A stretch of 64,000 nucleotides of DNA from Acidobacteria bacterium RIFCSPLOWO2_12_FULL_54_10 (GCA_001767075.1 MEKX01000067.1:383-64382); one strand, 5' to 3'; positions 1 to 62,140 are shown, counted from the first letter of the stretch. A program made the numbers and translations. The notes: generated by a model from the letters alone, not told the origin.

Positions 1-773
1 TTGATGCAAACAGCGATGGAGAATCCGCAGGCTTGTCTCAAAAAGCTGGTTCGGTTTGGTTTCTGGCTGGCGAAAAGGTCGCACAGCGCTTTGGCTGGAA
101 ACCAGGACAAACTGTGGCAGTTAATTACGGAGACAAGCAGTTATCTTTTCCGTTGACGGGCATTCTTTCGACAGGCGAGAGCGCGGATTCCCAAGTATTG
201 CTTCCGTTAAATCTTTTGCAGGACATGGCTCAGCAACAAAACCGCATGAGCCTGATACAGCTTGCAATTCCTGGCTCCTCGCAAGAGGTTGAACAGACAA
301 GACAGCTTCTAGCTAAATCAATATCGGGCGCTGAAATCCGCCCAATCCGCGAAATAGTGGAATCCGAGGGACGGGTTGTAATGAAGGTAAAAGGCTTGAT
401 GTTTGGGCTGACTGCAATTGTTTTGGGGATTGTAGTTTTGAGCGTCATGACAACCATCAGTCGAACGGTATTCGAGCGCCGCCATGATATTGGCGTCATG
501 AAAGCTATAGGGGGAAGCGATGCCGCGGTATCGCGCATATTTATCGCCCAATCCACACTTCTGGGCGTGATGGCTTCCATTCTCGGTTATCTCGCGGGAT
601 TCGGGTTGGCGCAATGGGCAGCGCTTCGCATTTTCCAATCGACGCTGATGTGGCGATGGGATGTATTTCCAGTGGTTCTTGCGATCACCCTGGTAATGTC
701 GCTGGCTGCAACGGCGCTTCCTGTTCATCGGATTCGCATGCTGAGTCCTGCTGTTGTTCTAAAAGGTGATTGA
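1..773 (+). CDS. ABC transporter permease, FtsX/MacB-like, 5'-truncated by window edge
   Basis: Frame is open to position 3 with no stop. C-terminal hydrophobic FtsX-like TM helices (GLMFGLTAIVLGIVVLSV, LLGVMASILGYLAGFGLAQW). The ATPase gene starts at 766 in the ATGA overlap. Confidence 0.7.
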   Translation, partial: DANSDGESAGLSQKAGSVWFLAGEKVAQRFGWKPGQTVAVNYGDKQLSFPLTGILSTGESADSQVLLPLNLLQDMAQQQNRMSLIQLAIPGSSQEVEQTRQLLAKSISGAEIRPIREIVESEGRVVMKVKGLMFGLTAIVLGIVVLSVMTTISRTVFERRHDIGVMKAIGGSDAAVSRIFIAQSTLLGVMASILGYLAGFGLAQWAALRIFQSTLMWRWDVFPVVLAITLVMSLAATALPVHRIRMLSPAVVLKGD

Positions 774-1917
774 GATGCCGGCACAAATGCAGATGCAAGA
801 CGTCGAAGATAAAACGTTTGTTCCAATGGACCCTGAGCAACCGATGATCTCAATAGAAAACGTGCGGAAGCAGTATAACGGCTCTGTGGTGGCGCTGGAT
901 GGCGTGAATCTGGCAGTTAAGCCCGGTGAGTGGGTGGCGATTATGGGGCCATCCGGATCAGGGAAATCGACGTTGCTGAATATCGTGGGGTGCCTTGATC
1001 TGCCGACCTCTGGCCGGGTAGTCATCGCAGGCACGGATACCAGCAGCCTAACTGGGCGTGAGCTGACCCGTTTTCGCGCTGAGACTGCCGGATTCATCTT
1101 CCAGCAATTTCATTTGATCCCCTATCTAACAGCGCTGGAAAACGTCATGATGGCGCAATACTTCCACAGCATGACCGACGAGCAGGAAGCCCGCAAAGCG
1201 CTCGATTTGGTGGGACTCAAAGACCGCAGCCATCATTTGCCATCACAACTATCCGGAGGCGAGCAACAACGCGTATCCATTGCACGCGCCCTCATTAACC
1301 AGCCTCGCATTCTGCTGGCCGATGAACCTACAGGAAATCTCGATGCGGAAAACGAAAGGATCGTGATGAGCTTGCTGCGGGAGCTGCACATGCAAGGAAA
1401 CACGATTCTTATGGTCACGCACGATCCTATCATAGGAGAGATGGCTGACCGAAAGATCGTCCTGGAGCACGGGCGCATCATTCACGCCCAGCACTATACT
1501 TTCGAAGAAGAGATTTTGTTTGATGAAGTATTAGAGCAGCTTTGGGTTTTCGAGGAAAGGGCGGAACACGCGACGCAAGACCAACTGCAATTTGAAGGCG
1601 GAGGCAATCTTAAACTACTGCCGGTCATGCAGGATATAGGCTTGTTGCATCGCAATGGAAAACAACTCGCTATGACGCTCGTGGGGCGAGAAAGGGCCGC
1701 CAGCCATGTCCGGCGGCACCGTCTCGCAGAATGTCTTTTCGCGGAAACAATTCATGTCAAGAATGATCGCGGGCTTAAGTCCAATGCGTGCACGTTCGAC
1801 CAATTACTCAGTTCGGAAATGACAGAAAAAATCTGCACATTTCTCAATCATCCATCACAATGTCCGCACGGAAACCTCATCCCGCCCGGTCCTTGCTGCT
1901 CCTACGCAAATACTTAG
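766..1917 (+). CDS. ABC transporter ATP-binding protein (MacB/LolD-like) with ~140-aa C-terminal extension
   Basis: Walker A GPSGSGKST, ABC signature LSGGEQQRVSIARAL, Walker B ILLADEPTGNLD, H-loop VTHD. The ABC domain ends near aa 245 and the ORF continues to 1917. Confidence 0.8.
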   Translation: MIEMPAQMQMQDVEDKTFVPMDPEQPMISIENVRKQYNGSVVALDGVNLAVKPGEWVAIMGPSGSGKSTLLNIVGCLDLPTSGRVVIAGTDTSSLTGRELTRFRAETAGFIFQQFHLIPYLTALENVMMAQYFHSMTDEQEARKALDLVGLKDRSHHLPSQLSGGEQQRVSIARALINQPRILLADEPTGNLDAENERIVMSLLRELHMQGNTILMVTHDPIIGEMADRKIVLEHGRIIHAQHYTFEEEILFDEVLEQLWVFEERAEHATQDQLQFEGGGNLKLLPVMQDIGLLHRNGKQLAMTLVGRERAASHVRRHRLAECLFAETIHVKNDRGLKSNACTFDQLLSSEMTEKICTFLNHPSQCPHGNLIPPGPCCSYANT

Positions 1918-2519: not shown

Positions 2520-3965
2520 CTATTGAAGATCGGTGATTTTCTCAAGAATGCTAGGCTTTTCTTCTTCGATAGCTATTAGAGAATGACAAGTATTGCAGTC
2601 TTGAGTGAGGAAAGTATTGTTCTTGCCGACATGGCTGCCATCATGACATCGGAAGCATCCGGGAAAATCTTGATGGCTCAGGTTGTTGGGATAAGTACCC
2701 CAGCCGACTCTTCGTTCCGGAAATACGTTCCTGCGGTAAATATCCTGCGCAACGCTTGTGGCTAGCTCGACTGCGTCACGCTGCGTTTCCCAAACTTGCG
2801 GATAAGTTGTTTGATAATAGGTGGTCAATGATTTCACGATGGCATCAGCGCCTTCGCCCTGAGTTGCGTATGGTTGCATGAGAAATTCTTTGGCCTTCAT
2901 TTTCACGAAAGGCAAAGACGGCGCGATTTGCCCAGAAGACAAACCATTGTCCAATGCCTCTGCCGGTGATTCAAAAGCATGTGCCGGACGGTTATGGCAA
3001 TCGATGCAGTCCATCTTGCGCAACTGTCCCTTGGAAAAATCTCCATCCCAGTCCGGGGTTGCGTACTCTCGAACCTCGCCACCAGCTGTGCGATACCGCA
3101 CCCAAGGGATGGTTTGCCGGTGGTCATCTGTTGCGAGGTAAGTAATGTCATCGGCCAAATCTAAATGCGTGCTGTGCACTCCTCTCGAACGGCCGTTGCC
3201 GCCCCCGACATGCATCTGCAGAATCGTCCAGGTGAGGGTGTTTGCTTCGTCTTCCTGATACTTTTTTTTGACCTTGATGACGGAACCGACATAATGAGAC
3301 GGCTCGTGGCACTGCTGGCAGGTTTCATTGGATGGATGAAGATTTGCTAACTTGGTTTGAAGTGGCAGCGCATAGTTTCCTGAGGCAGTGGCAAACACTT
3401 TGCCAATGCCTGCCATTTTGTGTTGGAGATAGGTGGAAGTTTTAGATCCTATGTGGCACCGGATGCAATCCACATTGGCATGAGGCGATGAAGGATATGC
3501 CGCAAACTCCGGTTGCATGACCGTGTGACAAGCCTCGCCGCAAAAAGAGGCTGAATCCATGTACTGGATGCCCTGATAAGTTGCAAAAATAAAAATAAAT
3601 GCATTTAACATTGTCGCTAGCGCCAATAAACCTAATATCTTGCGCAGCTTCGGCACATTCAGATCAATCAGAGGATATTCGGAAGGTAACTTGCTTTCCT
3701 CAGTGGTTCGGCGGCGTTTCAACCAAATGCCGACGGGAATCAATATCAATCCGAAAACGAAAATGCCCGGCAATATAAGCGTGGTAAGGATCGTTATATA
3801 CGGATTCGCTTGATAGCCATATTCACCGGTAAGAAGGGATACGGCGATAGCAAAAAATGTGCTTGTCGTGAGCACAACGCCGATCAGGCTAATCGTGTTG
3901 CTGGCGAAAACCACGAAAGGCTTGATAATCCTGAATAGCCTATCCCAGAAGGCTTCATTGCCCAT
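2520..3965 (-). CDS. membrane-anchored multihaem c-type cytochrome (6 CxxCH)
   Basis: Three N-terminal hydrophobic helices, then six CxxCH motifs: CGEACH, CIRCH, CQQCH, CIDCH, CFRCH, CNTCH. Confidence 0.8.
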   Translation of the reverse strand: MGNEAFWDRLFRIIKPFVVFASNTISLIGVVLTTSTFFAIAVSLLTGEYGYQANPYITILTTLILPGIFVFGLILIPVGIWLKRRRTTEESKLPSEYPLIDLNVPKLRKILGLLALATMLNAFIFIFATYQGIQYMDSASFCGEACHTVMQPEFAAYPSSPHANVDCIRCHIGSKTSTYLQHKMAGIGKVFATASGNYALPLQTKLANLHPSNETCQQCHEPSHYVGSVIKVKKKYQEDEANTLTWTILQMHVGGGNGRSRGVHSTHLDLADDITYLATDDHRQTIPWVRYRTAGGEVREYATPDWDGDFSKGQLRKMDCIDCHNRPAHAFESPAEALDNGLSSGQIAPSLPFVKMKAKEFLMQPYATQGEGADAIVKSLTTYYQTTYPQVWETQRDAVELATSVAQDIYRRNVFPERRVGWGTYPNNLSHQDFPGCFRCHDGSHVGKNNTFLTQDCNTCHSLIAIEEEKPSILEKITDLQ

Positions 3966-4100
3966 GAATGCAATTATATGCCGGACCTATCGCGAGAAGA
4001 ATCAGCAAACATAAAAATATCGGCATAGTCCATTCATGCATCCGAGGCTGGAATCCGTAATTGACATTAATTCTATGATGCCGATAAGCTGTTTTGATCT

Positions 4101-4865
4101 ATGGTCGACATTCATTGCCACATATTGCCGCAATTGGACGACGGAGCTAAGGATTTAGTTACTTCACAACAAATGGCGGCAATGGCTCAGTCCGATGGGA
4201 TTACCCACATCGTAGCGACGCCGCATTCCAATTACCAGTACAAGTTCGACGCGGGTGTCAACGCTCAAAAGCGTGATGAACTGCAACAAACGATAGGCGG
4301 CTCGCCTGCCATTTTACTCGGTTGCGACTTCCATTTAAGCTTTGAAAATTTAGAGGACATTCGGGTCAACCCTGAGCGTTATACGCTGAATGGAAAACAG
4401 TACCTGTTGGTGGAATTCGCAGACATCAGCATCCCGCCGCATATGGACCAAATATTTTTCGACCTGCTCGGCCGGCGGCTTAACCCTATCATTACTCATC
4501 CGGAGCGCAATCCAATCCTTTCGCGTCAGCCAGAGCAAATTCGCAAATGGGTGGATCAGGGATGTTTTGTTCAAGTAACGGCAGCTTCATTTTTAGGGCG
4601 TTTCGGCAAGCAGGCGGAACAGTTAAGCCATATTCTGGTAAAGCACGGCTTGGTACATTTCATAGCCACCGATGCCCATAACACCATCTCTCGTCCACCG
4701 GTGCTTTCTGAAGCGAGGGAAGCTCTAAAAACCCTATATGGAGAGAAACTAGCTGACGCTCTCACAGAACTCAACCCGCGTGCAGCAATTGAAGGCAGAC
4801 AGCTCCCTTGGCAACCGCCCACGTTGCCCATAAAAGCCAAGCGCTGGTTTTCATTTGGCCGCTAA
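4101..4865 (+). CDS. CpsB/YwqE-like PHP-domain protein-tyrosine phosphatase
   Basis: N-terminal MVDIHCHILPQLDDGA motif and later His-rich motifs (ATPHSNYQY, ITHPERN, ATDAHN) match the Mn-dependent CpsB phosphatase family. Confidence 0.75.
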   Translation: MVDIHCHILPQLDDGAKDLVTSQQMAAMAQSDGITHIVATPHSNYQYKFDAGVNAQKRDELQQTIGGSPAILLGCDFHLSFENLEDIRVNPERYTLNGKQYLLVEFADISIPPHMDQIFFDLLGRRLNPIITHPERNPILSRQPEQIRKWVDQGCFVQVTAASFLGRFGKQAEQLSHILVKHGLVHFIATDAHNTISRPPVLSEAREALKTLYGEKLADALTELNPRAAIEGRQLPWQPPTLPIKAKRWFSFGR

Positions 4866-4973
4866 GCGTGCGATTTTGTTGATGTTGATCTTTTAGCCTA
4901 TATTAGCTATATTTAGGTTGTTTACTCCCCCCAAACCAGGCAGTCTTGCGGTCCCCTGCGGGCTGAAATCTAA

Positions 4974-6587
4974 ATGAGTGCATCGAAACCTACTGACGGT
5001 ATCCTTCCCAGGCAACAGGCTAACCTGCTCTCCGAACTCATCATCGCGGAAGGGTCACGGTTTCAGGGCGTGGTTTGTGCGAATCGGCTACAAGGCAAGA
5101 GCGACCTGTTGCGGCAAATCCGCGATCGACTTTTTGATGCAGCGGAAGGGCCGATCCCCATCCTTCATTCCTTTAATAATCACCGCACCAATGCGATTGA
5201 TGCACGATATTTCCTAGCTTCTTTCTGCAATCAAGTTCGCGCGTTTCTCCTGCGGAGAGAGGAATTGCTGGATGAGCAATCTTTGGATCTTGAGCATGAA
5301 ATAGATCGCCCAGGCATGCCGCTTTCCTTATCAGAACTTGTACAAACATTTTTGGCTTTACCTGAAGATGCAATGCTCGAATTCGCCGCCTCAGTTCCTT
5401 CGCAGTTCGCCAGTAAGGAAAAAAGGCCAATCTGCCTGTTGTTCGATGATACGGAAACGCTAAATATTAATTCTCCATTCTTGACCGCTCTGAAGCCTGC
5501 AATTCATCCATGGATACTGACAGGAAGACTTTCAGCAATGAAGAAAGTGGCTGCCCATTGTTCTTGGTCAATCATTCCATTAGAGAGTTTTTCCGCGCAG
5601 GAAGCGCTGCTCCTTGCTGAAATTAGATGCAGATTTCATGGCCTGAAGTATGAGCCGCAGCCATGGAAGGAGTGGATAGCAATTGCCGGCGCTTCACTCT
5701 GGCCCATCCAACAGCTAATCAGCGCAGCGGCAGTCCGGGGGCAGACGATCGATTCCACGAAGCAATTGGGCAACATTTACATCACTGAACTTTCAGGTGG
5801 AACTCTAGGGAACTTCTTTGCAGATCGGTGGCAGAGGGCCGTGCCTGACCGCAGGCAAAGGTTGAAGGCTTCGCATTATATGGCCAACCTGAGTTCCAGA
5901 GGCGATGTTGCGCCGGATTCTACAATCGTTGGTGAAAGCATCTGGGATGGCTTGATTGCAGAAGAGTGGGCAACGGAAGCTGCCGTACGTTTACAATTTG
6001 ATTTGAGTCTTCTGGAACGGGATTGGCTGCTATTTTCCCTGGCATCGGATTCAACGAGTGTTTCAAAAGAAAGAGCCCGTGCTCGCGCATTACAAGCATT
6101 TTTATATCGTGTTTTGCTCTGGCAGCGTCGTCTCGATCAACAGCCTTTAGCTATGATCCGAGAGCGCATTTCTGAGTTAGTTTTCCAGGGCTGGCCTAAA
6201 TCGACAGAAACAATTGACAGCAAGATTCATTTTCCGCGTATCAGTTCAATCGCCATGGAAAGCGCTGGCAATGCAGACTTGTTTTGGTGTTATGGATTTA
6301 AGACTCAAGAATCGGGAGACGGAGAAATCCCGATCGTAATGCTGATTGCCTTGTGCCTGGAGACTCCATCCGCCGAAATAGTGAGAATTTGGCACCGGCA
6401 GTTGCTTCAGGAATCACATAGCTTGGCATTAGATTCATCCTGTCCATCAGAATTGTGGACGATTGTACCGAATTCTTCATTGCCTGCATCGGAAAGCTTC
6501 GAACGACGATTTAGCTGGGACGAATTTGCGCTTTTCCTTGAATCGGGAAAACTTCCCAAGCAGGTATTATTCCCACCTTTTAATTAA
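4974..6587 (+). CDS. hypothetical protein, possible degenerate P-loop domain
   Basis: Long ORF with no transmembrane segment. Walker-A-like RLQGKSDLL and Walker-B/A'-like ICLLFDDTETL. Recognised only as an ORF. Confidence 0.45.
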   Translation: MSASKPTDGILPRQQANLLSELIIAEGSRFQGVVCANRLQGKSDLLRQIRDRLFDAAEGPIPILHSFNNHRTNAIDARYFLASFCNQVRAFLLRREELLDEQSLDLEHEIDRPGMPLSLSELVQTFLALPEDAMLEFAASVPSQFASKEKRPICLLFDDTETLNINSPFLTALKPAIHPWILTGRLSAMKKVAAHCSWSIIPLESFSAQEALLLAEIRCRFHGLKYEPQPWKEWIAIAGASLWPIQQLISAAAVRGQTIDSTKQLGNIYITELSGGTLGNFFADRWQRAVPDRRQRLKASHYMANLSSRGDVAPDSTIVGESIWDGLIAEEWATEAAVRLQFDLSLLERDWLLFSLASDSTSVSKERARARALQAFLYRVLLWQRRLDQQPLAMIRERISELVFQGWPKSTETIDSKIHFPRISSIAMESAGNADLFWCYGFKTQESGDGEIPIVMLIALCLETPSAEIVRIWHRQLLQESHSLALDSSCPSELWTIVPNSSLPASESFERRFSWDEFALFLESGKLPKQVLFPPFN

Positions 6588-6850
6588 AAGTAGAAGATTC
6601 GCAGCAGGAGAATTTCAGTTTGCATGATATTGGAGGTTGAAATAAGCATACATCCCAATACACAATCTATTGCTTTTCTCCGATTAACCGATATGATCTT
6701 ATGTTATTGATGTATAAAGCGATACATGATCTATAATATATCGGCGCTAGTAGTTAGCCAGCAAGGGTTATGTTATATTCGTTTATCAATTAATCGGTTA
6801 TTCATGCATCACAGGAAGCAAAATATTGGCAGCTACGAGGATAAATAACT

Positions 6851-7648
6851 TTGAAGCCGGATTCAACCTCTCAGAGTAACCCGTTTCGAAATAGGGTAGC
6901 TAGTGTTGAGAAGCGTGATTGGGAGCTCTGGTCATTAGCTGTGGTGTTAGTTTGCGCACTGGCCATCGGATTGTTCCTGATTCTACTGCCATCAGTTTTT
7001 ATGGGCCAGGACAAAATCTATGTCCAAGCTGAATTATCGCCTCAACTACTGTTGGGCTTGCTTGTTCTGGTCATGTTTTCTCTTGTCTATTTGATTCATA
7101 AGCAGTTTCAAGTTAGAAATCTTCGTTTGCAATCGATTCAAGATGCATGGAATTTCGAGCTAGGCCGTGTTCAAATGTTGATTGACCCGCTTACACAGGT
7201 ATTCAATCGAGCAGCCTTGGAGGAGATATTTAGCAAAGAGATTAATCGAGCTAAACGTAATCAATCTTCACTCTTTTTTTTATACATCGATGTGGATGAT
7301 TTCAAGCACGTCAACACAAAATATGGCCATCTTGCAGGGGATTTGGTCCTGACGGAAGTAGGAGCTATTCTAAAGCAGAGCATACGGGGGTCCGACTATG
7401 TCATACGAATGGGCGGTGACGAATTTTTATTGGCATTAGTGGATACAAATGATGAGGGTGCTCAAGTTGTGAAAAACCGTGTTCATCAAAGCGCAATAAA
7501 TTGGAGCCAGTCTTCTCCGTTAGCCGGATATAAACTGAGCTTGAGCATTGGAGTAAAGAAATTCGACGGAAGCATGTCGTTTGATAAAGCCATGGAAGAT
7601 GCCGATGCGCTGATGTACGCTGAAAAAGAAAAGCACCATTCCGATTAA
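6851..7648 (+). CDS. GGDEF-domain diguanylate cyclase with N-terminal TM segments
   Basis: Two hydrophobic helices followed by RMGGDEFLLAL (GGDEF active site) and upstream RxxD-like context. Confidence 0.8.
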   Translation: MKPDSTSQSNPFRNRVASVEKRDWELWSLAVVLVCALAIGLFLILLPSVFMGQDKIYVQAELSPQLLLGLLVLVMFSLVYLIHKQFQVRNLRLQSIQDAWNFELGRVQMLIDPLTQVFNRAALEEIFSKEINRAKRNQSSLFFLYIDVDDFKHVNTKYGHLAGDLVLTEVGAILKQSIRGSDYVIRMGGDEFLLALVDTNDEGAQVVKNRVHQSAINWSQSSPLAGYKLSLSIGVKKFDGSMSFDKAMEDADALMYAEKEKHHSD

Positions 7649-7685
7649 TCGCTTTGCAATTGACTTTTTTCACAGCTCCTCATAA

Positions 7686-8231
7686 TTATTTTGTAGTGAT
7701 ATTTCCTGGATTTTTAGTTTCCGCTAGGTTTCTGACCCACAGGACTACCTGCCATGCCTCTTCCGCGGATAGAACTTTTTCAAAAGACGGCATAGCTGTA
7801 TACCGCACTCCTTTAGAAATCACGAAATGAATCTGCCCATCCGTGAGATTGACTTCTAGGTTGCGAAGCGAGGGGACAGGCGGATAGAATTGCAGACCAA
7901 CCGCTGACTGCCCACTGCCATTGGACCCATGACAAAAGGCGCAATTAAGGTCATATGATTCCTCCCCTTTCGACAGATTCTCCTCAGTGGGGAGCAATGG
8001 GTTTTTCTCATTTGCTGCATCCTGGCGGCTCAGTCGCAAGATCCATCTTGCCATAGCTGTTTCTACTCTGCCCGGCTGTCCGGTTGCCGACCAATTCTCT
8101 TTAAGATACGACGTAATAGCAATTACTATGACAACAACAAGAAGTAGACCAATAGCAGCATAAATTTTTCTCATGTATGCGCACCCGCCCGTCAAAAAGG
8201 GAAGTAAAAGGGGGAAACCCCTATTTTTCAA
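7686..8231 (-). CDS. membrane-anchored monohaem cytochrome c
   Basis: TM helix AAIGLLLVVVIVIAITSYL and a single CAFCHG haem-binding motif. The true start may be the internal MRKIYAA. Confidence 0.65.
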   Translation of the reverse strand: MKNRGFPLLLPFLTGGCAYMRKIYAAIGLLLVVVIVIAITSYLKENWSATGQPGRVETAMARWILRLSRQDAANEKNPLLPTEENLSKGEESYDLNCAFCHGSNGSGQSAVGLQFYPPVPSLRNLEVNLTDGQIHFVISKGVRYTAMPSFEKVLSAEEAWQVVLWVRNLAETKNPGNITTK

Positions 8232-10375: not shown

Positions 10376-11545
10376 ATGGTAAGTCGAGATAAACCTCCTC
10401 TAGTTCAACGTTTTACAAATGTGCATCTGGAAAATTGGAGAAACTTTCGCTCCGTTGATGTTGGTTTGACAAGACGAGTTTTCTTGGCAGGTGCAAATGC
10501 ATCGGGGAAATCAAATTTCCTCGATGTCTTCCGTTTTCTACAGGGTCTTGTTTCCGTGGGTGGAGGTTTCCAGGCGGCGATTCGCAAAAGGGGTGGTATT
10601 TCTCGCTTGGGATGCCTCGTAGCAAAAAAGAACCCTGAAATTCTGATCCATGTGAAAACTGCAAACAAGACATCAAAAGGACAGTGGGAATACGAATTAC
10701 AATTTACCCAAAATAACCGCCGCAAAATGCCGATCATATGGAGCGAGCGAGTAATACGCAACGGTGAGCAAATATTAAATCGCCCGCTGGATTCGGATAT
10801 TGCCGATCCTGAGAGAATGACTCAAACATATCTTGAGCAGGTCAATGTAAACCGTGAGTACCGGGCGCTTGCGGACTTTTTTCGATCCATCCGATATCTT
10901 CATATCATCCCAGAAATAGTGCGTGAACCAGACCGTTCCGGCGGGCGACGCAATGATCCTTATGGTGGAGACTTCCTCGATCAAGTTGCAAAGACACCGC
11001 CCGCAATTCGCAAACAGCATCTTACAAAAATTCGTGAGGCTTTGTCTGTTGCAATCCCACAATTGAAAGCACTCGAGTTCTGGAGGGATGCGCGAGGTGT
11101 TCCTCATCTGCGAGGAAACTACAAGCATTGGAAACCGATTGGTGTTTGGCAAACCGAAGAACAATTTTCAAACGGGACATTGCGATTGATTGGTTTGCTA
11201 TGGGCAATTTTGGACGGTAACGGTCCGCTCATCTTAGAGGAACCGGAGTTGTCTTTGCATTCCGATGTTGCCAGACACCTCCCCCAGATGTTCGCTAAGG
11301 TCCAGCAACGCACTGGACGGCAATTCCTAATTTCTACCCATTCCAATGAGCTTCTTCAGGATGAAGGCATAGGACTGAATGAGTTATTGTTATTAGAACC
11401 CACGCCGCGAGGCACGACCATTCGACAGGCAGGCGATTTCGCAGGTATACAGGCAATGATCAAAGGCGGAACAAGTTTAGCTGAGGCAGCACTGCCTAGA
11501 ACCCGTCCTCCGAACGCCCAGCAGCTTGCTCTCTTCGGTGAATGA
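10376..11545 (+). CDS. ABC/AAA_21-type ATPase (OLD/AbiL/PARIS-class ATPase component)
   Basis: Walker A FLAGANASGKSN, signature-like FSNGTLRLIGLL, Walker B/D-loop PLILEEPELSLH, H-loop LISTHSNELL. No transmembrane or substrate-binding domain. Confidence 0.75.
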   Translation: MVSRDKPPLVQRFTNVHLENWRNFRSVDVGLTRRVFLAGANASGKSNFLDVFRFLQGLVSVGGGFQAAIRKRGGISRLGCLVAKKNPEILIHVKTANKTSKGQWEYELQFTQNNRRKMPIIWSERVIRNGEQILNRPLDSDIADPERMTQTYLEQVNVNREYRALADFFRSIRYLHIIPEIVREPDRSGGRRNDPYGGDFLDQVAKTPPAIRKQHLTKIREALSVAIPQLKALEFWRDARGVPHLRGNYKHWKPIGVWQTEEQFSNGTLRLIGLLWAILDGNGPLILEEPELSLHSDVARHLPQMFAKVQQRTGRQFLISTHSNELLQDEGIGLNELLLLEPTPRGTTIRQAGDFAGIQAMIKGGTSLAEAALPRTRPPNAQQLALFGE

Positions 11546-11596
11546 TTTCAATTTAGACCTGATTCCCAATGTCACGTTTGCTCAGGAGCGCTGGTT

Positions 11597-12259
11597 TTGA
11601 ATCGTTCACATAAAACTATTGTTTATGGAGCTGTGGAAGGTTTGGTGGATGAAGCAGTCTTTCGTGTATTGGTCCATCTAGCAGGCGGTGCGCATGGCCC
11701 TGTATTCGGAAGACATGGCAAAGAGTATTTGAGGAAAAATCTTGCTGGGTATAACTTAGCTGCACAGACTGCCCCCTGGGTTGTCCTGGTTGATCTGGAC
11801 CACGATTCGGATTGTCCTCCTCCATTCCGAAATTCGTGGCTTCCAAATCCATCTTCTAGCATGTGCTTTCGGATTGTCGTGCGCGAGGTGGAAGCTTGGC
11901 TGCTCGCCGACCGGGAGCGTATCGCTAATTATTTGGGCATTCCGCGACGATTGGTGCCATCGGAACCAGAACTGGTTCACGACCCCAAAAAACTGATGAT
12001 TCGTTTAGCAATGCATTCTCGGCATCGGCGTATTCGATATGAAATGGTTCCGCATCCAGGGAGCGGTCGCGAAGTAGGGCCAGCGTACAATTCTAGACTC
12101 ATTGAATACGTAGAAAACAAGAATCGCGGATGGCGACCTGAGATCGCTGCCCGACACTCAGAAAGCCTGGCGCGATGCATGCATCGCCTAAATAATCTCT
12201 TGAAACAAAATATCGATAATAGAACAGTAATTCGCAGTCCTGAAGTTGCCTATTACTGA
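11597..12259 (+). CDS. TOPRIM-like (DUF4276-like) putative nuclease partner of the ATPase
   Basis: TTG start preceded by AGGAG at 8-nt spacing. N-terminal VYGAVEGLVDEAVF (conserved Glu) and VVLVDLDHDSD (DxD) arranged as in TOPRIM. Lies 51 nt downstream of the ATPase on the same strand. Confidence 0.6.
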   Translation: MNRSHKTIVYGAVEGLVDEAVFRVLVHLAGGAHGPVFGRHGKEYLRKNLAGYNLAAQTAPWVVLVDLDHDSDCPPPFRNSWLPNPSSSMCFRIVVREVEAWLLADRERIANYLGIPRRLVPSEPELVHDPKKLMIRLAMHSRHRRIRYEMVPHPGSGREVGPAYNSRLIEYVENKNRGWRPEIAARHSESLARCMHRLNNLLKQNIDNRTVIRSPEVAYY

Positions 12260-20107: not shown

Positions 20108-20276
20108 AGGGAGAGTATAGCATTACAATGGCATCGCTAGTCTAGGTCTGCATGTCTATTGAATTCACATTGACCCAATTCGATTTTAAGTATTAAATTG
20201 TTTCATGTTTTGATGATTTAGATGAATGCAAATCGCTGAAATGCTTTTATTAGAACATCGCTTCCGGAGGGAAAAC

Positions 20277-22178
20277 ATGTCAAAAAAAATTAGTGCGCTC
20301 TTTGCTCTAGTGTGTTGGATCGGACTTTCGGCCAACTCCTGGGCACAAGGATATCAAAGTCTTGAAATGGTTCTTTATAATGGCAAAATTGTAACGGTCG
20401 ATGACCATAGCTACACGTCAAATATAGGAACCATTGCTCAAGCAATCCACATCAAAGACGGCAAAGTATTGCATGTTGGAACCAACGACCAGATTCGCCC
20501 AATGGCTGGAGCCGGGGTCAAGTCGGTCGATCTGAAGGGAAAGACTGTTATTCCAGGAATGATTCTTACGCATGAACATCCTTATGACTGGAATCCAGTA
20601 GAACCCTGGCCCGTGAAAGCAGTTTTGGGTAAAGATGACAAGGTCATAGTTCGATTTTTGGAAGGCAGCCCGGAAGAAAATATCCAAGCATTTCCTAAAA
20701 CTTTAACTGAAACTGTGGCCAAGTCTAAGCCTGGTCAATGGATCTACATCGTATTTACCTTCGGCAAGAATTATGAATGGTCCACTGGCGGCAACATTGG
20801 CATGGGTCGGGGAGGCATGGATTCCAAAGTATTTAATATCATCCTCGAGAAAAGAATCACCAAAGAGATGCTGGACGCTGCCGCACCCAATAATCCGATT
20901 CTTCTCCGGGATGTTTTCACCACCATGATGTTTAATCAGAAAGGATTGGATGAAAGCAGGAAAATTTTCCCCGAGAAAGACATCAATACCATAAAAGATG
21001 CAGATGGCATCGGCGGAGCCAACGAAATGCGCTGGGCTTTTTCGGATGTAGTCATGCATGACCGAATGGCGGATTTACAAGAAATCATCCGTTTAGGGCA
21101 TGAATGGTGGGCCGGATACGGAATGTCGGGGTATTCTTCCAACACATATGCGCCATCAACGCACAAAGTTTATGGTGATCTTGAAGCGAGAGGACTGATG
21201 TCCTTGCGCGTGGCTTGGACTTGGAATTGGCGTGCGGGCTATTATTACCCGGATGAATATTTTCTGTACGACTTGGCAAACAGGCTGGGTAAAGGTACAG
21301 ATTATTATTGGAATGCAGGTGGCAGAAATGGCGCAGGCGGGAATTGCACCACAGCAGTACCGCTCAAGCCGCAACCAATTGTGCGAGCCGCAGGCGGTGG
21401 TGAACTAGCCGGTTGCACGTATGAGCCCGGCTCCAGGAATGCCCTATTGCTTTATGACTGGATTAAAGCGGGAAATCGATATGCCGGAGCTCACCATGGC
21501 GGAGACAAAGATGTCGATTACGTCATGGATATCATCGAAAAAGCCAGTAAAGATGCTGGCATGACGATTGAGCAAATACGGGCAAAACGCCATTCGGTTG
21601 ACCATAGCGGGATGTTCCCTCGTCCGGATCAAGTAACGCGCATGAAAAATCTCAATTTGGCTGCCGACGGCAATGCGTTTGAGATTTTCCAAGCTGCGCC
21701 AGCCGTGTTTGAAACCTATGGTGAAAGAGCTGTTGGTTGGGTCGTTCCCAAAAAGCGGCTGAATGAAGCGCAGATTCTTAATTCATTTGAGATGGATCGT
21801 GCTTTAGGATCAACGGTACTTACATTCTTTGACGGTCTCACTTGGTTTCAGAATCGAAAATCCTGGGACGGCAAAGTCTATGGCGCGGACCAAGCGATAG
21901 ATCGTGCGACGACGCTAAAGGTCGCTACTTACCGCGGAGCTGAATTCTCACTGAAGGAGAATCAGTGGGGTTCTCTCGAACCAGGGAAATGGGCCGACCT
22001 GCTCGTATTGGATAAAGATTTCCTTGCCTCGTCCATCGATGACTTCCAAAAAACCAGAGTACTCATGACAGTTTCTGGCGGCCGAATTATTCATTTGGTT
22101 CCATCTTTAGCCCGCGAGATTGGAGTGCAGCCAGCAGGCGCTATGGTGACTTTGAACGGCCCGGCGGCTCAATGGTAA
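20277..22178 (+). CDS. secreted amidohydrolase-3 family metal-dependent hydrolase (paralogue 6 of the family at 54-64 kb)
   Basis: ATG at 20277 preceded by GGAGG. Signal peptide ALFALVCWIGLSANSWAQ. HxH metal motif PGMILTHEHP and C-terminal NAFEIF.../DLLVLDKDF blocks shared with the tandem copies. Confidence 0.75.
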   Translation: MSKKISALFALVCWIGLSANSWAQGYQSLEMVLYNGKIVTVDDHSYTSNIGTIAQAIHIKDGKVLHVGTNDQIRPMAGAGVKSVDLKGKTVIPGMILTHEHPYDWNPVEPWPVKAVLGKDDKVIVRFLEGSPEENIQAFPKTLTETVAKSKPGQWIYIVFTFGKNYEWSTGGNIGMGRGGMDSKVFNIILEKRITKEMLDAAAPNNPILLRDVFTTMMFNQKGLDESRKIFPEKDINTIKDADGIGGANEMRWAFSDVVMHDRMADLQEIIRLGHEWWAGYGMSGYSSNTYAPSTHKVYGDLEARGLMSLRVAWTWNWRAGYYYPDEYFLYDLANRLGKGTDYYWNAGGRNGAGGNCTTAVPLKPQPIVRAAGGGELAGCTYEPGSRNALLLYDWIKAGNRYAGAHHGGDKDVDYVMDIIEKASKDAGMTIEQIRAKRHSVDHSGMFPRPDQVTRMKNLNLAADGNAFEIFQAAPAVFETYGERAVGWVVPKKRLNEAQILNSFEMDRALGSTVLTFFDGLTWFQNRKSWDGKVYGADQAIDRATTLKVATYRGAEFSLKENQWGSLEPGKWADLLVLDKDFLASSIDDFQKTRVLMTVSGGRIIHLVPSLAREIGVQPAGAMVTLNGPAAQW

Positions 22179-54018: not shown

Positions 54019-55920
54019 TCAGTATTGCGGTGATTTGTAAACCGTCTTGCCTCCCAGCGATGTCAGAAGCGTCTTGATCGTCTTGATCTGGTCTGACGGA
54101 ATCGTGAAGTAGTCCTTGTCGATCACGATAAAGTCGGCCAGTTTCCCGACCTCCAGCGACCCGATGTTCTTTTCATTAAACAACTGCTCGGCGCCCCAGA
54201 TCGTTGCCGCTTTCATCAAGTCGGTGCGGTCCATGGATTCGCGCACATTGTACGTCAATCCATCGTGCGGCATCTTTCGGCTTACAAAGAACTCGATGAA
54301 GCCCCAGATGTTCCCATCCCACTGCTCTGGATAGTCCATATCCTTCGCGTAGTATGCCACTTTGTTCAAATGAGCATCGGTATTGAATACCGGGTGCCCG
54401 CCGGCATCCTGGTAGCTCTTCATCGGCGCCATCCAGGTCATCACCTGTTCCCCGTAAACCTTCAGGAACTCGCCGCCCTTGATGTTGCCCTGCACTTGGT
54501 ATCCATTAAATGCCGGCATCACGCCGTAATCGGCCAATCGCTTGATATGATCCGGACGAATGATCGGGTTGTGCTCCGTGCCGATGCGCAGCTCCCGCAC
54601 CTGTGCCACGGTCATTCTGCCGCTTTTCACTTCCTCATCCAGCAATTTCAACAAGGAGTCGTAGGTGCCATCACTGTACGTATGCAGAAAGCTCAGTCTC
54701 AGGCCCGATTGAATGGCTGATTTGACCTGTTCGAAACCCGCTGCTGCATTGTAATCGGTTGGCTGAGCGTTGCAATCCCGGCGAATTCCACTCGGTGCGT
54801 TCGGGTTGATCGGCTTTGATGTCGTGCAGGTTAAGCCAGATTCCCAACCTTCGTTGGAAACACCAGCGTTCCAAATGTAGTCATTGCCAATGCCTCTGAA
54901 ATCGCCTACATTTCGGTAAAAGAACGCTAACCCCCCGCCTGGTTGATTTACTTCCGGCTGATTACCCCACAGCGTTCCCAGGTACCAGCCCCAGCGGACC
55001 GGCATCTCGCCGCTCTGATAGAGCAGATTGTAGGTCTTCATGATGGATGGCGACCCGTAATAGTGATTCCCGAACGTGGTCACGCCTTGCGCCGATACGC
55101 ATTCCAGAAGTTCACGCTTCAGGAAGTCAACTTTTTCCGTCTCGCGTCCTTTCATCAGGATGTCGAAGACCGTCGCTGTGCGCGCCGTCAACCCCGCCGC
55201 TTCCCAACCCAATATTTTCAGGAACTCGTCTTTCGCTTTCGTATTGTGTGCTTCCGGGCCGATGGCTTCGCTGCTGAATACCAGCAACGGATTATTCGGC
55301 GAAAGGGTGTCCAGATATTCGCGTGTTATCGTTCCGCTGCTCCCGTCCTGCTGGCGAAACAGCGCATGGACGATCTTCCGTGATTCCGGCAGTGTTTTGC
55401 CGCCGAATACCGATGCCCAAATCCATTTGCCTGGCCCCATTTGCGCAGCCCGGTCGCGAACCCCTTTTTCCAGGTTCCTCAATACCTCAGCCTGCTCGGT
55501 GCCTAACGCATAAGTGATCTTCAGTTGCGGATCGTTATATCGCTTGGAGGTTGCCTCGCCTTCCGATCCCAGCCAGTGTTCCACTGCCCACAGATGCGGA
55601 TGCGTGTGCCCGTCAATCAATCCGGGCAGAACAATGCGCCCTTTCGCATCTACTACTTCCGTATTCGGTCCTGCTAAAAATCGCATTTCATCGTTCGTTC
55701 CACGGGCGATAATGCGATTATTTTTCACCGCAAATGCTTGCACTTGCGTGTTGCTGTTGTCCATGGTGTGAACTCGCCCATTCACCACAACCAGTTCCGG
55801 ATACGCTTTCAGTAAATCCAGCTTTCTTGTCGCATCGTCTTGCGCTTGCAGCAGCACTGGCATCAGTAAAGCAAACATCGCCCAAGCCGCTTGATATAAT
55901 TTCCAATTCTTTCTTATCAT
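54019..55920 (-). CDS. secreted amidohydrolase-3 family hydrolase, tandem paralogue 1
   Basis: Start MIRKNWK preceded by AAGGGGG. Signal peptide ...LLMPVLLQAQ. HxH PGLIDGHTHPHLW. C-terminal NTDAHL and GKLADFIVIDKDYFTIP blocks. Confidence 0.8.
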   Translation of the reverse strand: MIRKNWKLYQAAWAMFALLMPVLLQAQDDATRKLDLLKAYPELVVVNGRVHTMDNSNTQVQAFAVKNNRIIARGTNDEMRFLAGPNTEVVDAKGRIVLPGLIDGHTHPHLWAVEHWLGSEGEATSKRYNDPQLKITYALGTEQAEVLRNLEKGVRDRAAQMGPGKWIWASVFGGKTLPESRKIVHALFRQQDGSSGTITREYLDTLSPNNPLLVFSSEAIGPEAHNTKAKDEFLKILGWEAAGLTARTATVFDILMKGRETEKVDFLKRELLECVSAQGVTTFGNHYYGSPSIMKTYNLLYQSGEMPVRWGWYLGTLWGNQPEVNQPGGGLAFFYRNVGDFRGIGNDYIWNAGVSNEGWESGLTCTTSKPINPNAPSGIRRDCNAQPTDYNAAAGFEQVKSAIQSGLRLSFLHTYSDGTYDSLLKLLDEEVKSGRMTVAQVRELRIGTEHNPIIRPDHIKRLADYGVMPAFNGYQVQGNIKGGEFLKVYGEQVMTWMAPMKSYQDAGGHPVFNTDAHLNKVAYYAKDMDYPEQWDGNIWGFIEFFVSRKMPHDGLTYNVRESMDRTDLMKAATIWGAEQLFNEKNIGSLEVGKLADFIVIDKDYFTIPSDQIKTIKTLLTSLGGKTVYKSPQY

Positions 55921-56015
55921 CTGCGCCCCCTTATATAAATTCCTGAAATGCTTAGGGCAGAATGACCGTTGTGAATTCGGCATTCTGCCCTAAGAAATTA
56001 ATTAAAAGCTAACTC

Positions 56016-57941: not shown

Positions 57942-58023
57942 GATTTCCTCCTTATGATTTTCCGTGCGGGAAGCCGCAAATTTCAATTTGCTATTCCCGC
58001 ATATTAACTTGTTCCGAAACTAT

Positions 58024-59955: not shown

Positions 59956-60039
59956 ATTTTCTCTCCCTCTTTTCTCATGAAAACATTTTTGCCAGCGTCA
60001 AACGCTGGTTTCTACAAACGCTATGACTTTGAAATGCTC

Positions 60040-61977: not shown

Positions 61978-62051
61978 CTTTCCTCCTCATCTTTTGAATA
62001 CAAGTCTGTGGCTTTCTGCTGTTGAGTCTTACTGCTAATAATTCGGTTTAA

Positions 62052-62123
62052 TTCAAAAAGTAAAAAAGGCTGCACTCAGTCGTTTCCCGTCACCATTGCT
62101 TCAGGAAATTTCTCGTGCAGCCT
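62052..62123 (-). terminator. rho-independent terminator candidate downstream of paralogue 5
   Basis: On the minus strand: stem AGGCTGCAC/GTGCAGCCT (62067-62075 / 62115-62123) enclosing a 39-nt loop, followed by TTTTTACTTTTTG. Confidence 0.35.
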
Positions 62124-62140
62124 GTCATTGCTTCTCTTTC

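Follow-up and report, generated by a model that had tools for sequence, protein, structure and literature searches.

A gene module conserved in uncultured Acidobacteria comprises, in this gene order, a PHP-family phosphatase, a 537-aa protein (X), a coiled-coil protein in some genomes, and a diguanylate cyclase with two transmembrane segments. The combination of this phosphatase with a predicted STAND ATPase and a cyclase suggests an undescribed type of phosphorylation-linked c-di-GMP control and not a capsule kinase/phosphatase pair. The module was studied in a window of 64,000 nt, i.e., the whole stretch of DNA analysed here, from Acidobacteria bacterium RIFCSPLOWO2_12_FULL_54_10. The analysis established what the genes encode, how well their motifs are conserved and which folds are predicted, as well as synteny, co-divergence and the architectures found in relatives. 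Literature searches for AAA_16 with HATPase_c_2 and STAS, and for a PHP phosphatase with a diguanylate cyclase, yielded no account of such a module. The genes and spacers of the module in the window are:

4101..4865, + strand: gene 1, CpsB/YwqE-type PHP (metal-dependent) phosphatase, 254 aa (PF19567, YwqE/CpsB matches)
4866..4973, + strand: spacer between the phosphatase gene and X, 108 bp (between ORFs)
4974..6587, + strand: X (gene 2), predicted 537-aa STAND/AAA+-type P-loop NTPase with a family-specific C-terminal domain (AF2, Foldseek and motifs)
6588..6850, + strand: spacer between X and the cyclase gene, 263 bp, AT-rich (between ORFs)
6851..7648, + strand: membrane-anchored diguanylate cyclase, 265 aa, with two hydrophobic helices, a stalk and a GGDEF domain (Pfam GGDEF)

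The first two ORFs, their coordinates and their distance of 108 bp are exactly as given in the original prediction, which had also correctly recognized gene 1 as a CpsB/YwqE-type PHP phosphatase. The gene 1 product (N-terminus MVDIHCHILPQLDDGA) scores 170.5 bits with the Pfam family CpsB_CapC (PF19567; cut-off 27, E 5e-50), a full-length match (residues 1-230 aligned to profile positions 1-233 of 234), and also matches YwqE of B. subtilis (3qy6, E 5e-41) and CpsB (3qy8, E 1e-23). The equivalog cut-off of NCBIfam NF041488 (Cps4B) is not reached (102.5 vs. 400 bits). The metal ligands of Cps4B are H5, H7, D14, H42, E80, E108, H136, D199 and H201, and its phosphate-binding arginines are R139 and R206 (PMC2777267). 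Their equivalents in gene 1 are H5, H7, D14, H42, E105, H133, D191 and H193 for the metals and R136 and R198 for the phosphate; these ten positions are kept in 17/17 X-linked orthologs. Glu80 is conservatively replaced by Asp76. The use of this Asp as a marker of a phosphatase subfamily dedicated to X was dropped, because out-group homologs in other contexts have Asp, too. By its sequence, gene 1 is an intact CpsB/YwqE-type PHP phosphatase with predicted phosphotyrosine-protein phosphatase activity. It resembles CpsB/Cps4B/YwqE (PtpZ) over the full length and at about equal size, likewise has the trinuclear-metal ligands (with Asp for Glu80) and both phosphate-binding arginines, and ends in a similar basic/hydrophobic C-terminal tail.

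Unlike typical CpsB/YwqE genes, gene 1 adjoins no BY-kinase or Wzz-type modulator, and its conserved neighbours are a predicted STAND NTPase and c-di-GMP enzymes, not polysaccharide genes. That neither a BY-kinase nor Wzz is nearby had been noted before and holds for the window: a pattern scan of the 64 kb found no ORF with the BY-kinase signature of Walker A plus Walker A' (hhhDxDxR), and no Wzz or BY-kinase was found among the ~30 larger ORFs scanned with Pfam/NCBIfam. The pairing of CpsB/YwqE phosphatases with a BY-kinase/Wzz-type modulator is typical, not obligatory, and the kinase gene is not always adjacent to that of a PHP tyrosine phosphatase. To our knowledge, PHP phosphatases of the CpsB/YwqE type have been described almost exclusively as BY-kinase partners in capsule/EPS control.

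The partner gene X matches no Pfam or NCBIfam model, in agreement with the missing family assignment in the original prediction. Its family is small, with 54 representatives among 1.84 billion proteins, and essentially Acidobacterial; every member is from an uncultured organism. A profile search with a 17-sequence X alignment in a set of 5.8 billion proteins returned the same 12 proteins and nothing further. For X itself, no significant Pfam match to the AAA_16, ATPase_2 or NB-ARC profiles was found, and its relatives match AAA_16 weakly (best, P0047, 32.7 vs. 32.6 bits; others E 6e-4 to 0.09). The features assigned within X are:

5001..5873, + strand: NOD core and lid, residues about 10-300 (AF2 strand/helix order, Foldseek, weak RuvBL2 lid match)
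5079..5102, + strand: Walker A, A36-NRLQ-GKS43 (conservation in 31 close-family sequences)
5430..5450, + strand: Walker B, I153-CLLFDD159 (conservation, model strand)
5511..5528, + strand: sensor-1 strand, WILTGR185, followed by a STAND-like 'PLExFSxxEA' segment (conservation, model strand)
5874..6188, + strand: helical/winged-helix-like middle region, residues about 301-405 (AF2 model)
6231..6548, + strand: C-terminal alpha/beta domain (b-b-b-a-b-b-a), residues about 420-525 (separate AF2 model)

A Foldseek search of the PDB with the AF2 model of X (pLDDT 80.2) matched 2qen (3e-8) and 2fna (8e-7), and further MalT (8bob), RuvB/RuvBL2, ORC/Cdc6, Avs4, CED-4, Apaf-1 and NRC. The best 50 PDB matches are all AAA+/STAND proteins, with no MinD, Soj or BY-kinase among them. 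Alignments to AAA+/STAND proteins comprise 290-440 columns; those to 2qen and 2fna (385-394 columns) span the core, the lid and the winged helix of the predicted structure. The X-family profile found only the RuvBL2 lid in the PDB, as a sub-threshold match of residues 200-271 (E 0.08). The AF2 model and the Foldseek matches support the P-loop fold on which the original prediction depended, and the fold of X is predicted to be of the AAA+/STAND type, not the MinD-like BY-kinase type.

Motif conservation was counted in 31 non-redundant close-family members. The segment RLQGKSDLL (residues 38-46) had been taken for a degenerate Walker A lacking its first Gly. It belongs to A36-NRLQ-G41-K42-S43, an instance of the classical [AG]x4GK[ST]: G41, K42, [ST]43 and D44 are present in 31/31 sequences, the first position is G in 28/31 and A in 3/31, and in the model the motif lies between strand 31-36 and helix 42-55. 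The pattern [AG]x4GK[ST] alone is weak evidence, as seven of the window's ORFs with 150 aa or more contain it. Similarly, ICLLFDDTETL (residues 153-163), previously read as Walker A'/B-like, is an ordinary ASCE Walker B (hhhhDD) and not a BY-kinase Walker A', with D158 in 30/31 sequences, at the end of the model strand 153-158, and D/E159 in 29/31. The segment WILTGR185 (G184 in 31/31, R185 in 26/31; strand 180-185 in the model) resembles the sensor-1 motif, hhhTxR, known from STAND NTPases. In the model, the two Walker motifs are located on strands 1 and 3 of an ASCE core, and the sensor-1 Arg comes after strand 4. The middle region is modelled as helices and a short beta-hairpin (333-342), with EEW332 and D350-W351 conserved. 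Taken by its sequence and model, X is a P-loop protein with canonical, intact motifs and a predicted NTPase function.

The likeness to STAND/AAA+ proteins of the AAA_16 and ATPase_2 (PF01637) types, i.e., 2qen (PAB2304), 2fna (SSO1545), MalT, Apaf-1/CED-4 and Avs, comprises the predicted core fold, the lid, the winged-helix region, Walker A, the hhhhDD Walker B, the sensor-1 Arg and, on the N-terminal side of the P-loop, another conserved Arg. What sets X apart is a long insertion of helices (residues 73-149) that separates strands 2 and 3. Unlike STAND NTPases, it has an unmatched alpha/beta domain of ~105 residues in place of an effector or a TPR/WD40/LRR sensor; the model contains neither TPR, WD40 or LRR repeats nor an N-terminal effector. 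Modelled separately (AF2 pLDDT 78), this C-terminal domain has no significant PDB fold match in Foldseek for residues 420-525 (best E 0.02, TM 0.34). Its signature FW438-C-Y-G441, C461, P465, W473, E480, W495 and P499 is nearly invariant in the close family.

In view of these results, a role of X as a BY-kinase-like pseudokinase, or as a degenerate P-loop protein, that partners the tyrosine phosphatase as a capsule/EPS-type kinase surrogate or substrate is very improbable. Such a role would agree with the adjacent, co-inherited CpsB-type phosphatase and with the presence of Walker A and B motifs, and Y269, found in 31/31 close and 18/19 distant relatives, could be a phosphosite. However, the best 50 Foldseek matches point to AAA+/STAND only, and X is without a Walker A' DxD motif (pattern scan, alignment) and a Wzz-like or transmembrane activator. 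Its C-terminus, ...GKLPKQVLFPPFN, contains no tyrosine and hence no tyrosine cluster. The Walker motifs are canonical and strongly conserved and give no hint of a pseudo-enzyme such as was proposed originally. On the grounds of fold, motifs and the missing tyrosine cluster, the BY-kinase/pseudokinase identity was rejected, and the BY-kinase part of the original prediction is largely refuted. The idea of a kinase-like partner nevertheless has a surprising parallel in relatives of X, which carry a GHKL (RsbW-type) kinase domain that the window protein lacks.

The Foldseek matches to Avs4 and plant NLRs, together with a complete candidate defence system, HEC-01A/B, 3.8 kb downstream (10376-12259), would be in line with an anti-phage STAND system of the Avs kind in which X is the sensing ATPase. 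This is extremely improbable: the Avs/NLR matches reflect the shared NTPase core only, neither an effector (nuclease, protease or TIR) nor a repeat-type sensor is present, and the divergence of X parallels that of its conserved signalling neighbours, in contrast to the variability of defence islands. PADLOC found nothing for X, the phosphatase, the cyclase or the relatives of X, and a defence-system identity was discarded.

The third gene, encoding the membrane diguanylate cyclase, and the c-di-GMP context of the locus had been overlooked in the original prediction. The cyclase matches Pfam GGDEF with E 1e-38 and has an intact GGDEF motif with an RxxD I-site five residues upstream (RGSDYVIRMGGDEF); the hydrophobic segments comprise about residues 24-50 and 62-82. 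The spacer in front of the cyclase gene is 81% identical to that of the closest relative, L007, leaving aside a 46-bp indel, and the 108-bp spacer is 93% identical to its L007 counterpart. The length of 263 bp suggests a separate promoter for the cyclase gene. In a promoter/terminator scan of 3900-7800, counts did not exceed shuffle expectation; the same holds for a single sigma-70-like hexamer pair at 4885-4913. A sigma-54-like GG/GC element, seen by eye in the spacer between the phosphatase gene and X, was dropped since its spacing is two bases too short. Rfam returned no RNA match over 3800-7800, including both spacers, even at E<=1, and thus no c-di-GMP riboswitch is found in the 263-bp spacer. 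The whole window contains no GAF-HD-GYP gene, coiled-coil gene, STAS gene or kinase domain, and no HATPase_c_2 or PP2C gene according to Pfam.

The original prediction had asked whether the first two genes are inherited together, and they are. As a P-loop fold is predicted for X as well, neither of the two outcomes named there as refuting was obtained. The phosphatase gene is located directly upstream of X in 24/30 informative loci, representing 10 of the 14 X lineages (set apart at <70% identity). The two genes are on the same strand and 23-170 bp apart, across X identities of 36-48%. Pairwise identities correlate between X and the phosphatase (r=0.94) and between X and the cyclase (r=0.95); all X loci are from one phylum, and shared ancestry adds to both the synteny and these correlations. 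An orthologous 2-TM GGDEF gene follows X in 13/17 informative loci (orthologs 56-66% identical). In 13 loci, a divergent gene for a GAF-HD_5 (GAF-HD-GYP) phosphodiesterase is found upstream, and in L002 a gene for an RR-PAS-GGDEF-EAL protein. The outer flanks vary by locus, with cytochromes in the window and GAF-HD-GYP, TerB or Sua5 elsewhere. Exceptions to the pairing are 4/14 lineages (L001/L019, L002, L003, L004/L025), and also L013, where X occurs without the phosphatase; X can thus work without it.

The same data bear on the possibility that the genes are neighbours only, i.e., that the phosphatase belongs to a BY-kinase/EPS pathway with its genes elsewhere and that adjacency is an inherited order with no direct functional coupling. 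We consider this unlikely, at an appreciable remaining probability. In L001/L019, X retains the cyclase while the phosphatase is missing, and an out-group Acidobacterial CpsB homolog (56% identity) is placed among sugar-nucleotide genes, without X. Along with the four lineages devoid of the phosphatase, the origin of all loci from one phylum and the occasional separation of PHP tyrosine phosphatases from their kinases, this would be expected of mere neighbours. Evidence against inherited order alone is that gene order, strand and short spacing are kept at X identities of 36-41% while the outer flanks differ. Moreover, a kinase-fused variant of X also retains the phosphatase, and the X-linked phosphatases form a discrete ortholog group (at least 59% identity; several members on X contigs) of about the size of the X family.

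The consistent embedding of the phosphatase gene between GGDEF and HD-GYP genes would also suit a PHP enzyme whose substrate is not a protein but a nucleotide or a product of c-di-GMP breakdown, with X as the regulator of a purely metabolic c-di-GMP turnover unit. The PHP superfamily includes nucleotidases and exonucleases, and the lineage carries the Glu80 to Asp replacement. We regard this alternative as improbable, given the full-length, high-scoring match to CpsB_CapC and YwqE, the two phosphate-positioning arginines of Cps4B, and the presence of the Asp substitution in out-group homologs from polysaccharide contexts as well.

The NTPase and alpha/beta core of X is found by itself, extended by a coiled coil, or joined to an RsbW-type kinase domain. 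In forms of 677-710 aa, the C-terminal extension matches the C-terminal end of the separately encoded coiled-coil protein, which was counted as fusion evidence for the module. The C-terminal RsbW-type (GHKL) kinase domain of relatives is missing from the X of the window. One such protein, P0013 (45% identical), combines X with HATPase_c_2 and is encoded between the same phosphatase and coiled-coil genes. The distant relatives are NTPase-HATPase_c_2 proteins in which the C-terminal alpha/beta domain precedes the kinase domain, and are encoded in operons with STAS and HD_5 or with PocR-GAF-GGDEF and STAS. P0013 and these distant relatives connect the X family with phospho-signalling.

The best explanation, which we hold tentatively and rate somewhat short of an even chance, gives X the part of a nucleotide-dependent switch or scaffold in a phosphorylation-linked c-di-GMP module. 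From the gene context we infer its mechanism, including a physical interaction of X, phosphatase and cyclase, the substrate of the phosphatase and the direction of c-di-GMP control. The NTP-bound or assembled state of X would gate the neighbouring cyclase, probably via the cytoplasmic stalk of the latter, and the PHP phosphatase would erase a phosphorylation mark on X, the cyclase or an adaptor. Since X in the window has no kinase domain, any kinase would act in trans. Several observations were counted against this explanation: the 'switch' in the window has no visible kinase; the activity known for CpsB-type enzymes is that of tyrosine phosphatases, but RsbW-type kinases phosphorylate Ser/Thr; some X lineages lack the phosphatase; all loci are from one phylum; and the 263-bp spacer suggests that the cyclase gene has its own promoter. 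A more specific proposal, a new c-di-GMP circuit in which an NTP-driven STAND switch directly gates the membrane diguanylate cyclase and the PHP-family (CpsB-type) phosphatase resets it, is bold and rather doubtful. If true, it would be the first case of a CpsB-type 'capsule' phosphatase with a role beyond BY-kinase/polysaccharide systems, and the first of a STAND NTPase as the phospho-regulated partner of a GGDEF enzyme, and the unmatched C-terminal alpha/beta domain of X would be an interaction or phospho-acceptor module. The substrate range of the CpsB/YwqE phosphatase family would widen. The protein family defined here has no Pfam or NCBIfam model, and its modular history is clear. Acidobacteria are abundant in soil and groundwater, and their biofilm/EPS regulation is poorly known.

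BY-kinases (Wzc, CapB, PtkA/YwqD) are P-loop proteins like X and the classical partners of CpsB/YwqE phosphatases. They belong to the MinD-like P-loop class with Walker A', in contrast to X, which has no Walker A', tyrosine cluster or transmembrane activator. On our best reading, the module would instead be functionally analogous to SiaABCD and HsbR/A/D. In SiaABCD and HsbR/HsbA/HsbD, a diguanylate cyclase is switched by a small protein whose own state is determined by a kinase and a phosphatase (PMC7278518, PMC8457831, PMC5085249). SiaABCD of Pseudomonas aeruginosa consists of the PP2C phosphatase SiaA, the kinase SiaB, the switch SiaC and the cyclase SiaD (PMC7278518, PMC8457831). The module likewise combines a phosphatase, a kinase (in relatives only), a putative switch protein (non-enzymatic in SiaABCD) and a cyclase with a short stalk and GGDEF domain. 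The PHP enzyme would take the role of the PP2C phosphatase and the STAND NTPase that of the switch protein. SiaD is the second-best NCBIfam match of the window cyclase (E 5e-35), below the equivalog cut-off (121 vs. 290 bits), and Pfam and NCBIfam found no PP2C or SiaC-like gene near X. The GGDEF domain is the sole homologous part: the module has a PHP in place of a PP2C phosphatase, its putative switch is an NTPase of 537 aa where SiaC is a small protein, and the window has no kinase.

Partner-switching modules can control a cyclase, as in HsbA-HsbD (PMC5085249). In comparison with partner switching (RsbW/RsbV, SpoIIAB/SpoIIAA; HsbR-HsbA-HsbD), the window is devoid of HATPase_c_2, STAS and PP2C genes; the distant relatives of X have HATPase_c_2, with a STAS protein and a c-di-GMP enzyme encoded after them. 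We know of no NTPase module fused to a kinase in canonical partner-switching systems. With X, a nucleotide-switch protein would join the known controls of diguanylate cyclases, including SiaABCD and HsbR/A/D.

The two genes of the original prediction were found at the proposed positions, separated by the proposed 108 bp. A third gene that it had not considered follows on the same strand, and the locus is laid out as follows:

2520-3965 (-), multihaem NapC/NirT-type cytochrome gene, upstream of gene 1
4101-4865 (+), gene 1, PHP phosphatase of the CpsB/YwqE type, 254 aa
4974-6587 (+), gene 2, encoding the 537-aa protein X
6851-7648 (+), TM-GGDEF diguanylate cyclase gene, 265 aa

An AT-rich spacer of 263 bp separates X from the cyclase gene, and a cytochrome c gene and lysA are the downstream neighbours of the three-gene stretch. 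The window matches the MAG Acidobacteria bacterium RIFCSPLOWO2_12_FULL_54_10, in which gene 1 is 100% identical to A3F68_12755, and X to A3F68_12760, annotated as a hypothetical protein. The phosphatase-X spacer (4866-4973) has no match in Rfam. It is 93% identical to positions 1015-1115 of L007, the locus of the closest relative, where the X proteins are only 86% identical, and it contains the GC-rich segment GGCAGTCTTGCGGTCCCCTGCGGGCTG immediately 5' of the X start codon.

X has no match in Pfam, NCBIfam or PADLOC models, and its family is tiny: phmmer, run exhaustively over 1.84 billion representatives, found 54 proteins. The P-loop motifs, previously described as degenerate, are canonical and conserved. 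Walker A (A36-NRLQ-GKS43) fits [AG]x4GK[ST], and G41, K42, [ST]43 and D44 are present in 31/31 non-redundant close relatives. In Walker B (CLLFD158-D159), D158 is kept in 30/31 and D/E159 in 29/31, and the sensor-1-type Arg of WILTGR185 is found in 26/31. In an AlphaFold2 model from 12 sequences (mean pLDDT 80.2), strand 31-36 leads into Walker A, which is followed by helix 42-55; strands 153-158 and 180-185 end in Walker B and R185, respectively. The P-loop fold was checked with Foldseek against the PDB, and the 50 best matches are all AAA+/STAND proteins. Two archaeal Walker-type ATPases, 2qen (3e-8) and 2fna (8e-7), score best, followed by MalT, RuvB/RuvBL2, ORC/Cdc6, Avs4, CED-4, Apaf-1 and NRC NLRs. 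On this model, X is a P-loop NTPase belonging to the AAA+/STAND class. MinD- and BY-kinase-type proteins are missing from these matches, no Walker A' motif was found in X, and the C-terminal tyrosine cluster is absent. A BY-kinase, or the BY-kinase-like pseudokinase suggested originally, is therefore essentially excluded.

The assignment of gene 1 was borne out, and the gene is intact. Pfam CpsB_CapC covers its product end to end (E 5e-50), and among solved structures the product matches YwqE of B. subtilis (E 5e-41) and CpsB of S. pneumoniae (E 1e-23). The metal ligands of Cps4B (M1: H5, H7, E80, D199; M2: E80, E108, H136; M3: D14, H42, H201) and its phosphate-binding residues R139 and R206 (PMC2777267) correspond to H5, H7, D76, D191, E105, H133, D14, H42 and H193, and to R136 and R198, in gene 1. 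All are kept in 17/17 orthologs adjoining an X gene, the sole change being Glu80 to Asp. This change also occurs in out-group Acidobacterial homologs and is therefore a feature of the lineage, not of the phosphatase-X pair. Gene 1 scores well short of the Cps4B equivalog cut-off of NCBIfam; by sequence it belongs to the CpsB/YwqE family and is not a capsule ortholog. That the PHP enzyme is a nucleotide hydrolase is improbable. Searched from the phosphatase side, the orthologs form a group of their own (318-581 bits, at least 59% identity), set off from the next matches at 56% identity or less; several of them share a contig with X. The out-group phosphatase P0198 is encoded without X, next to UDP-glucose dehydrogenase, epimerase, TauE and OmpA genes.

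The cyclase consists of two hydrophobic helices, a stalk and a GGDEF domain. Its GGDEF motif is intact, with a canonical RxxD I-site five residues upstream, and an active, product-inhibited diguanylate cyclase is plausible from the sequence. The second-best NCBIfam match is SiaD, well under cut-off.

To describe the gene neighborhood, 41 loci with X or a relative were collected and their neighbours tabulated by tblastn and blastp. A phosphatase ortholog (60-93% identical) is found directly upstream of X on the same strand in 24/30 informative loci and in 10/14 lineages (full-length X, <70% identity), with a spacer of 23-170 bp. A TM-GGDEF ortholog is located downstream in 13/17 informative loci (56-66% identical; >90% in L007). 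At 13 loci, a divergent GAF-HD_5 (HD-GYP-type) gene is found upstream (66-82% identical). The phosphatase is missing in the lineages L001/L019, L002, L003 and L004/L025 and in the partial locus L013; in L001/L019, a Sua5 gene lies upstream of X and the cyclase is retained. Pairwise identities of X correlate with those of the phosphatase (r=0.94, 120 pairs) and the cyclase (r=0.95), correlations that alone do not prove co-evolution because all organisms are related. X evolves faster, with a mean identity of 48% vs 71% for the phosphatase and 67% for the cyclase. Judged by these sequence comparisons, the pair is co-inherited, and X, phosphatase and cyclase are inherited together vertically. That the three are mere neighbours without coupling is possible, if rather unlikely. 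The 263-bp spacer is long enough for the cyclase gene to have its own promoter.

Two variants carry small ORFs without a Pfam match, one of 132 aa directly upstream of X and overlapping its start (L002, 4145-4543, +) and one of 86 aa upstream of the phosphatase gene (L014, 4730-4990, +). These could be extra small partners. At several loci, a coiled-coil gene of 320-365 aa is inserted between X and the cyclase gene (L006 2425-3492; L011 7875-8972; L029 7202-8167; L033 2246-3334; L014 8155-8732). The protein has no Pfam match, and its C-terminus matches the C-terminal extension of X forms of 677-710 aa (common segment ELEARAQWLEEEL ... STDLLA ... QSQxLLE). Depending on the genome, the same module is thus either part of X or a separate protein.

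Some relatives of X carry a kinase domain. P0013, 45% identical to X, ends in HATPase_c_2 (E 5e-17), the RsbW/SpoIIAB-type Ser/Thr kinase domain; its gene lies between those of the same phosphatase and the coiled-coil protein, with an HD_5 gene upstream. More distant relatives (24-30% identical, 670-840 aa) combine a weak AAA_16 match with HATPase_c_2 and are annotated by their sources as anti-sigma regulatory factor or RsbW. The part that aligns with X begins at the N-terminus and extends into the FxCYG motif in the C-terminal domain. At L016/L017, such a gene is followed by genes for a STAS and then an HD_5 protein; at L018, PocR-GAF-GGDEF comes before it and STAS after it. Roughly half of the distant relatives with a kinase fusion (P0047, P0048, P0051, P0053, P0054, P0055, P0057, P0060, P0061) have lost the Walker A lysine (GAS, GSS or GVS), with Walker B mostly kept; the subfamily of the window retains the lysine in 31/31 sequences. 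By sequence, the lysine-less proteins resemble a pseudo-ATPase scaffold joined to an RsbW-type kinase. Kinase domain, STAS proteins, PHP phosphatase and c-di-GMP enzymes tie the X superfamily to both phospho-signalling and c-di-GMP.

Elsewhere in the window, a complete two-gene candidate anti-phage system, HEC-01 (10376-12259, +), is flanked by a response-regulator gene and an aconitase-family gene. Further features are an Amidohydro_3 array and an ABC-transporter ATPase:

766-1917 (+), ABC-transporter ATPase fused to a C-terminal Fe_dep_repr_C domain (E 2e-17)
10376-11545 (+), HEC-01A, AAA_21-type ATPase (PADLOC E 1e-145)
11597-12259 (+), HEC-01B (PADLOC E 1e-61)
20226-22178 (+), further Amidohydro_3 copy
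54019-63997 (-), tandem array of at least five ORFs of ~620-655 aa

Three ORFs of the array were scanned and are Amidohydro_3 paralogs; the other two are assigned by size and position only. The array coincides with strongly negative GC and AT skew in the last 20 kb. The ABC ATPase has MacB-, LolD- and FtsE-like best matches, and its fusion to Fe_dep_repr_C, the DtxR-type metal-binding and dimerisation domain, looks unusual for its class. With the HEC-01 pair nearby, X itself might belong to an anti-phage STAND system, a reading made highly improbable by its vertical inheritance and lack of a PADLOC match.

That X is a STAND/AAA+ NTPase, and that it and the genes around it are functionally linked in c-di-GMP signalling, is a much safer claim than the specific mechanism. 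From gene context alone, we infer that X would act as a nucleotide-dependent switch or scaffold coupled to the neighbouring cyclase, and that the PHP phosphatase would take a regulatory phosphate off X or off a partner. This model is tentative, its chances slightly short of even. A kinase gene is absent from the 64-kb window, as are GAF-HD-GYP, coiled-coil and STAS genes; CpsB-type enzymes are known as tyrosine phosphatases, and RsbW-type kinases phosphorylate Ser/Thr. The long spacer and the lineages without phosphatase are further weak points.

Literature searches turned up no account of a module that combines PHP phosphatase, STAND NTPase and diguanylate cyclase, and the locus offers a clean, testable and conserved module from an under-studied phylum. 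No curated family covers X. The components all come from known superfamilies, and there are precedents for the proposed logic. In SiaABCD, the cyclase SiaD is activated by SiaC, whose state is controlled by the kinase SiaB and the phosphatase SiaA (PMC7278518, PMC8457831), and HsbR/HsbA/HsbD includes a STAS protein that binds a cyclase (PMC5085249). The model proposed for X, phosphatase and cyclase would follow the same logic.
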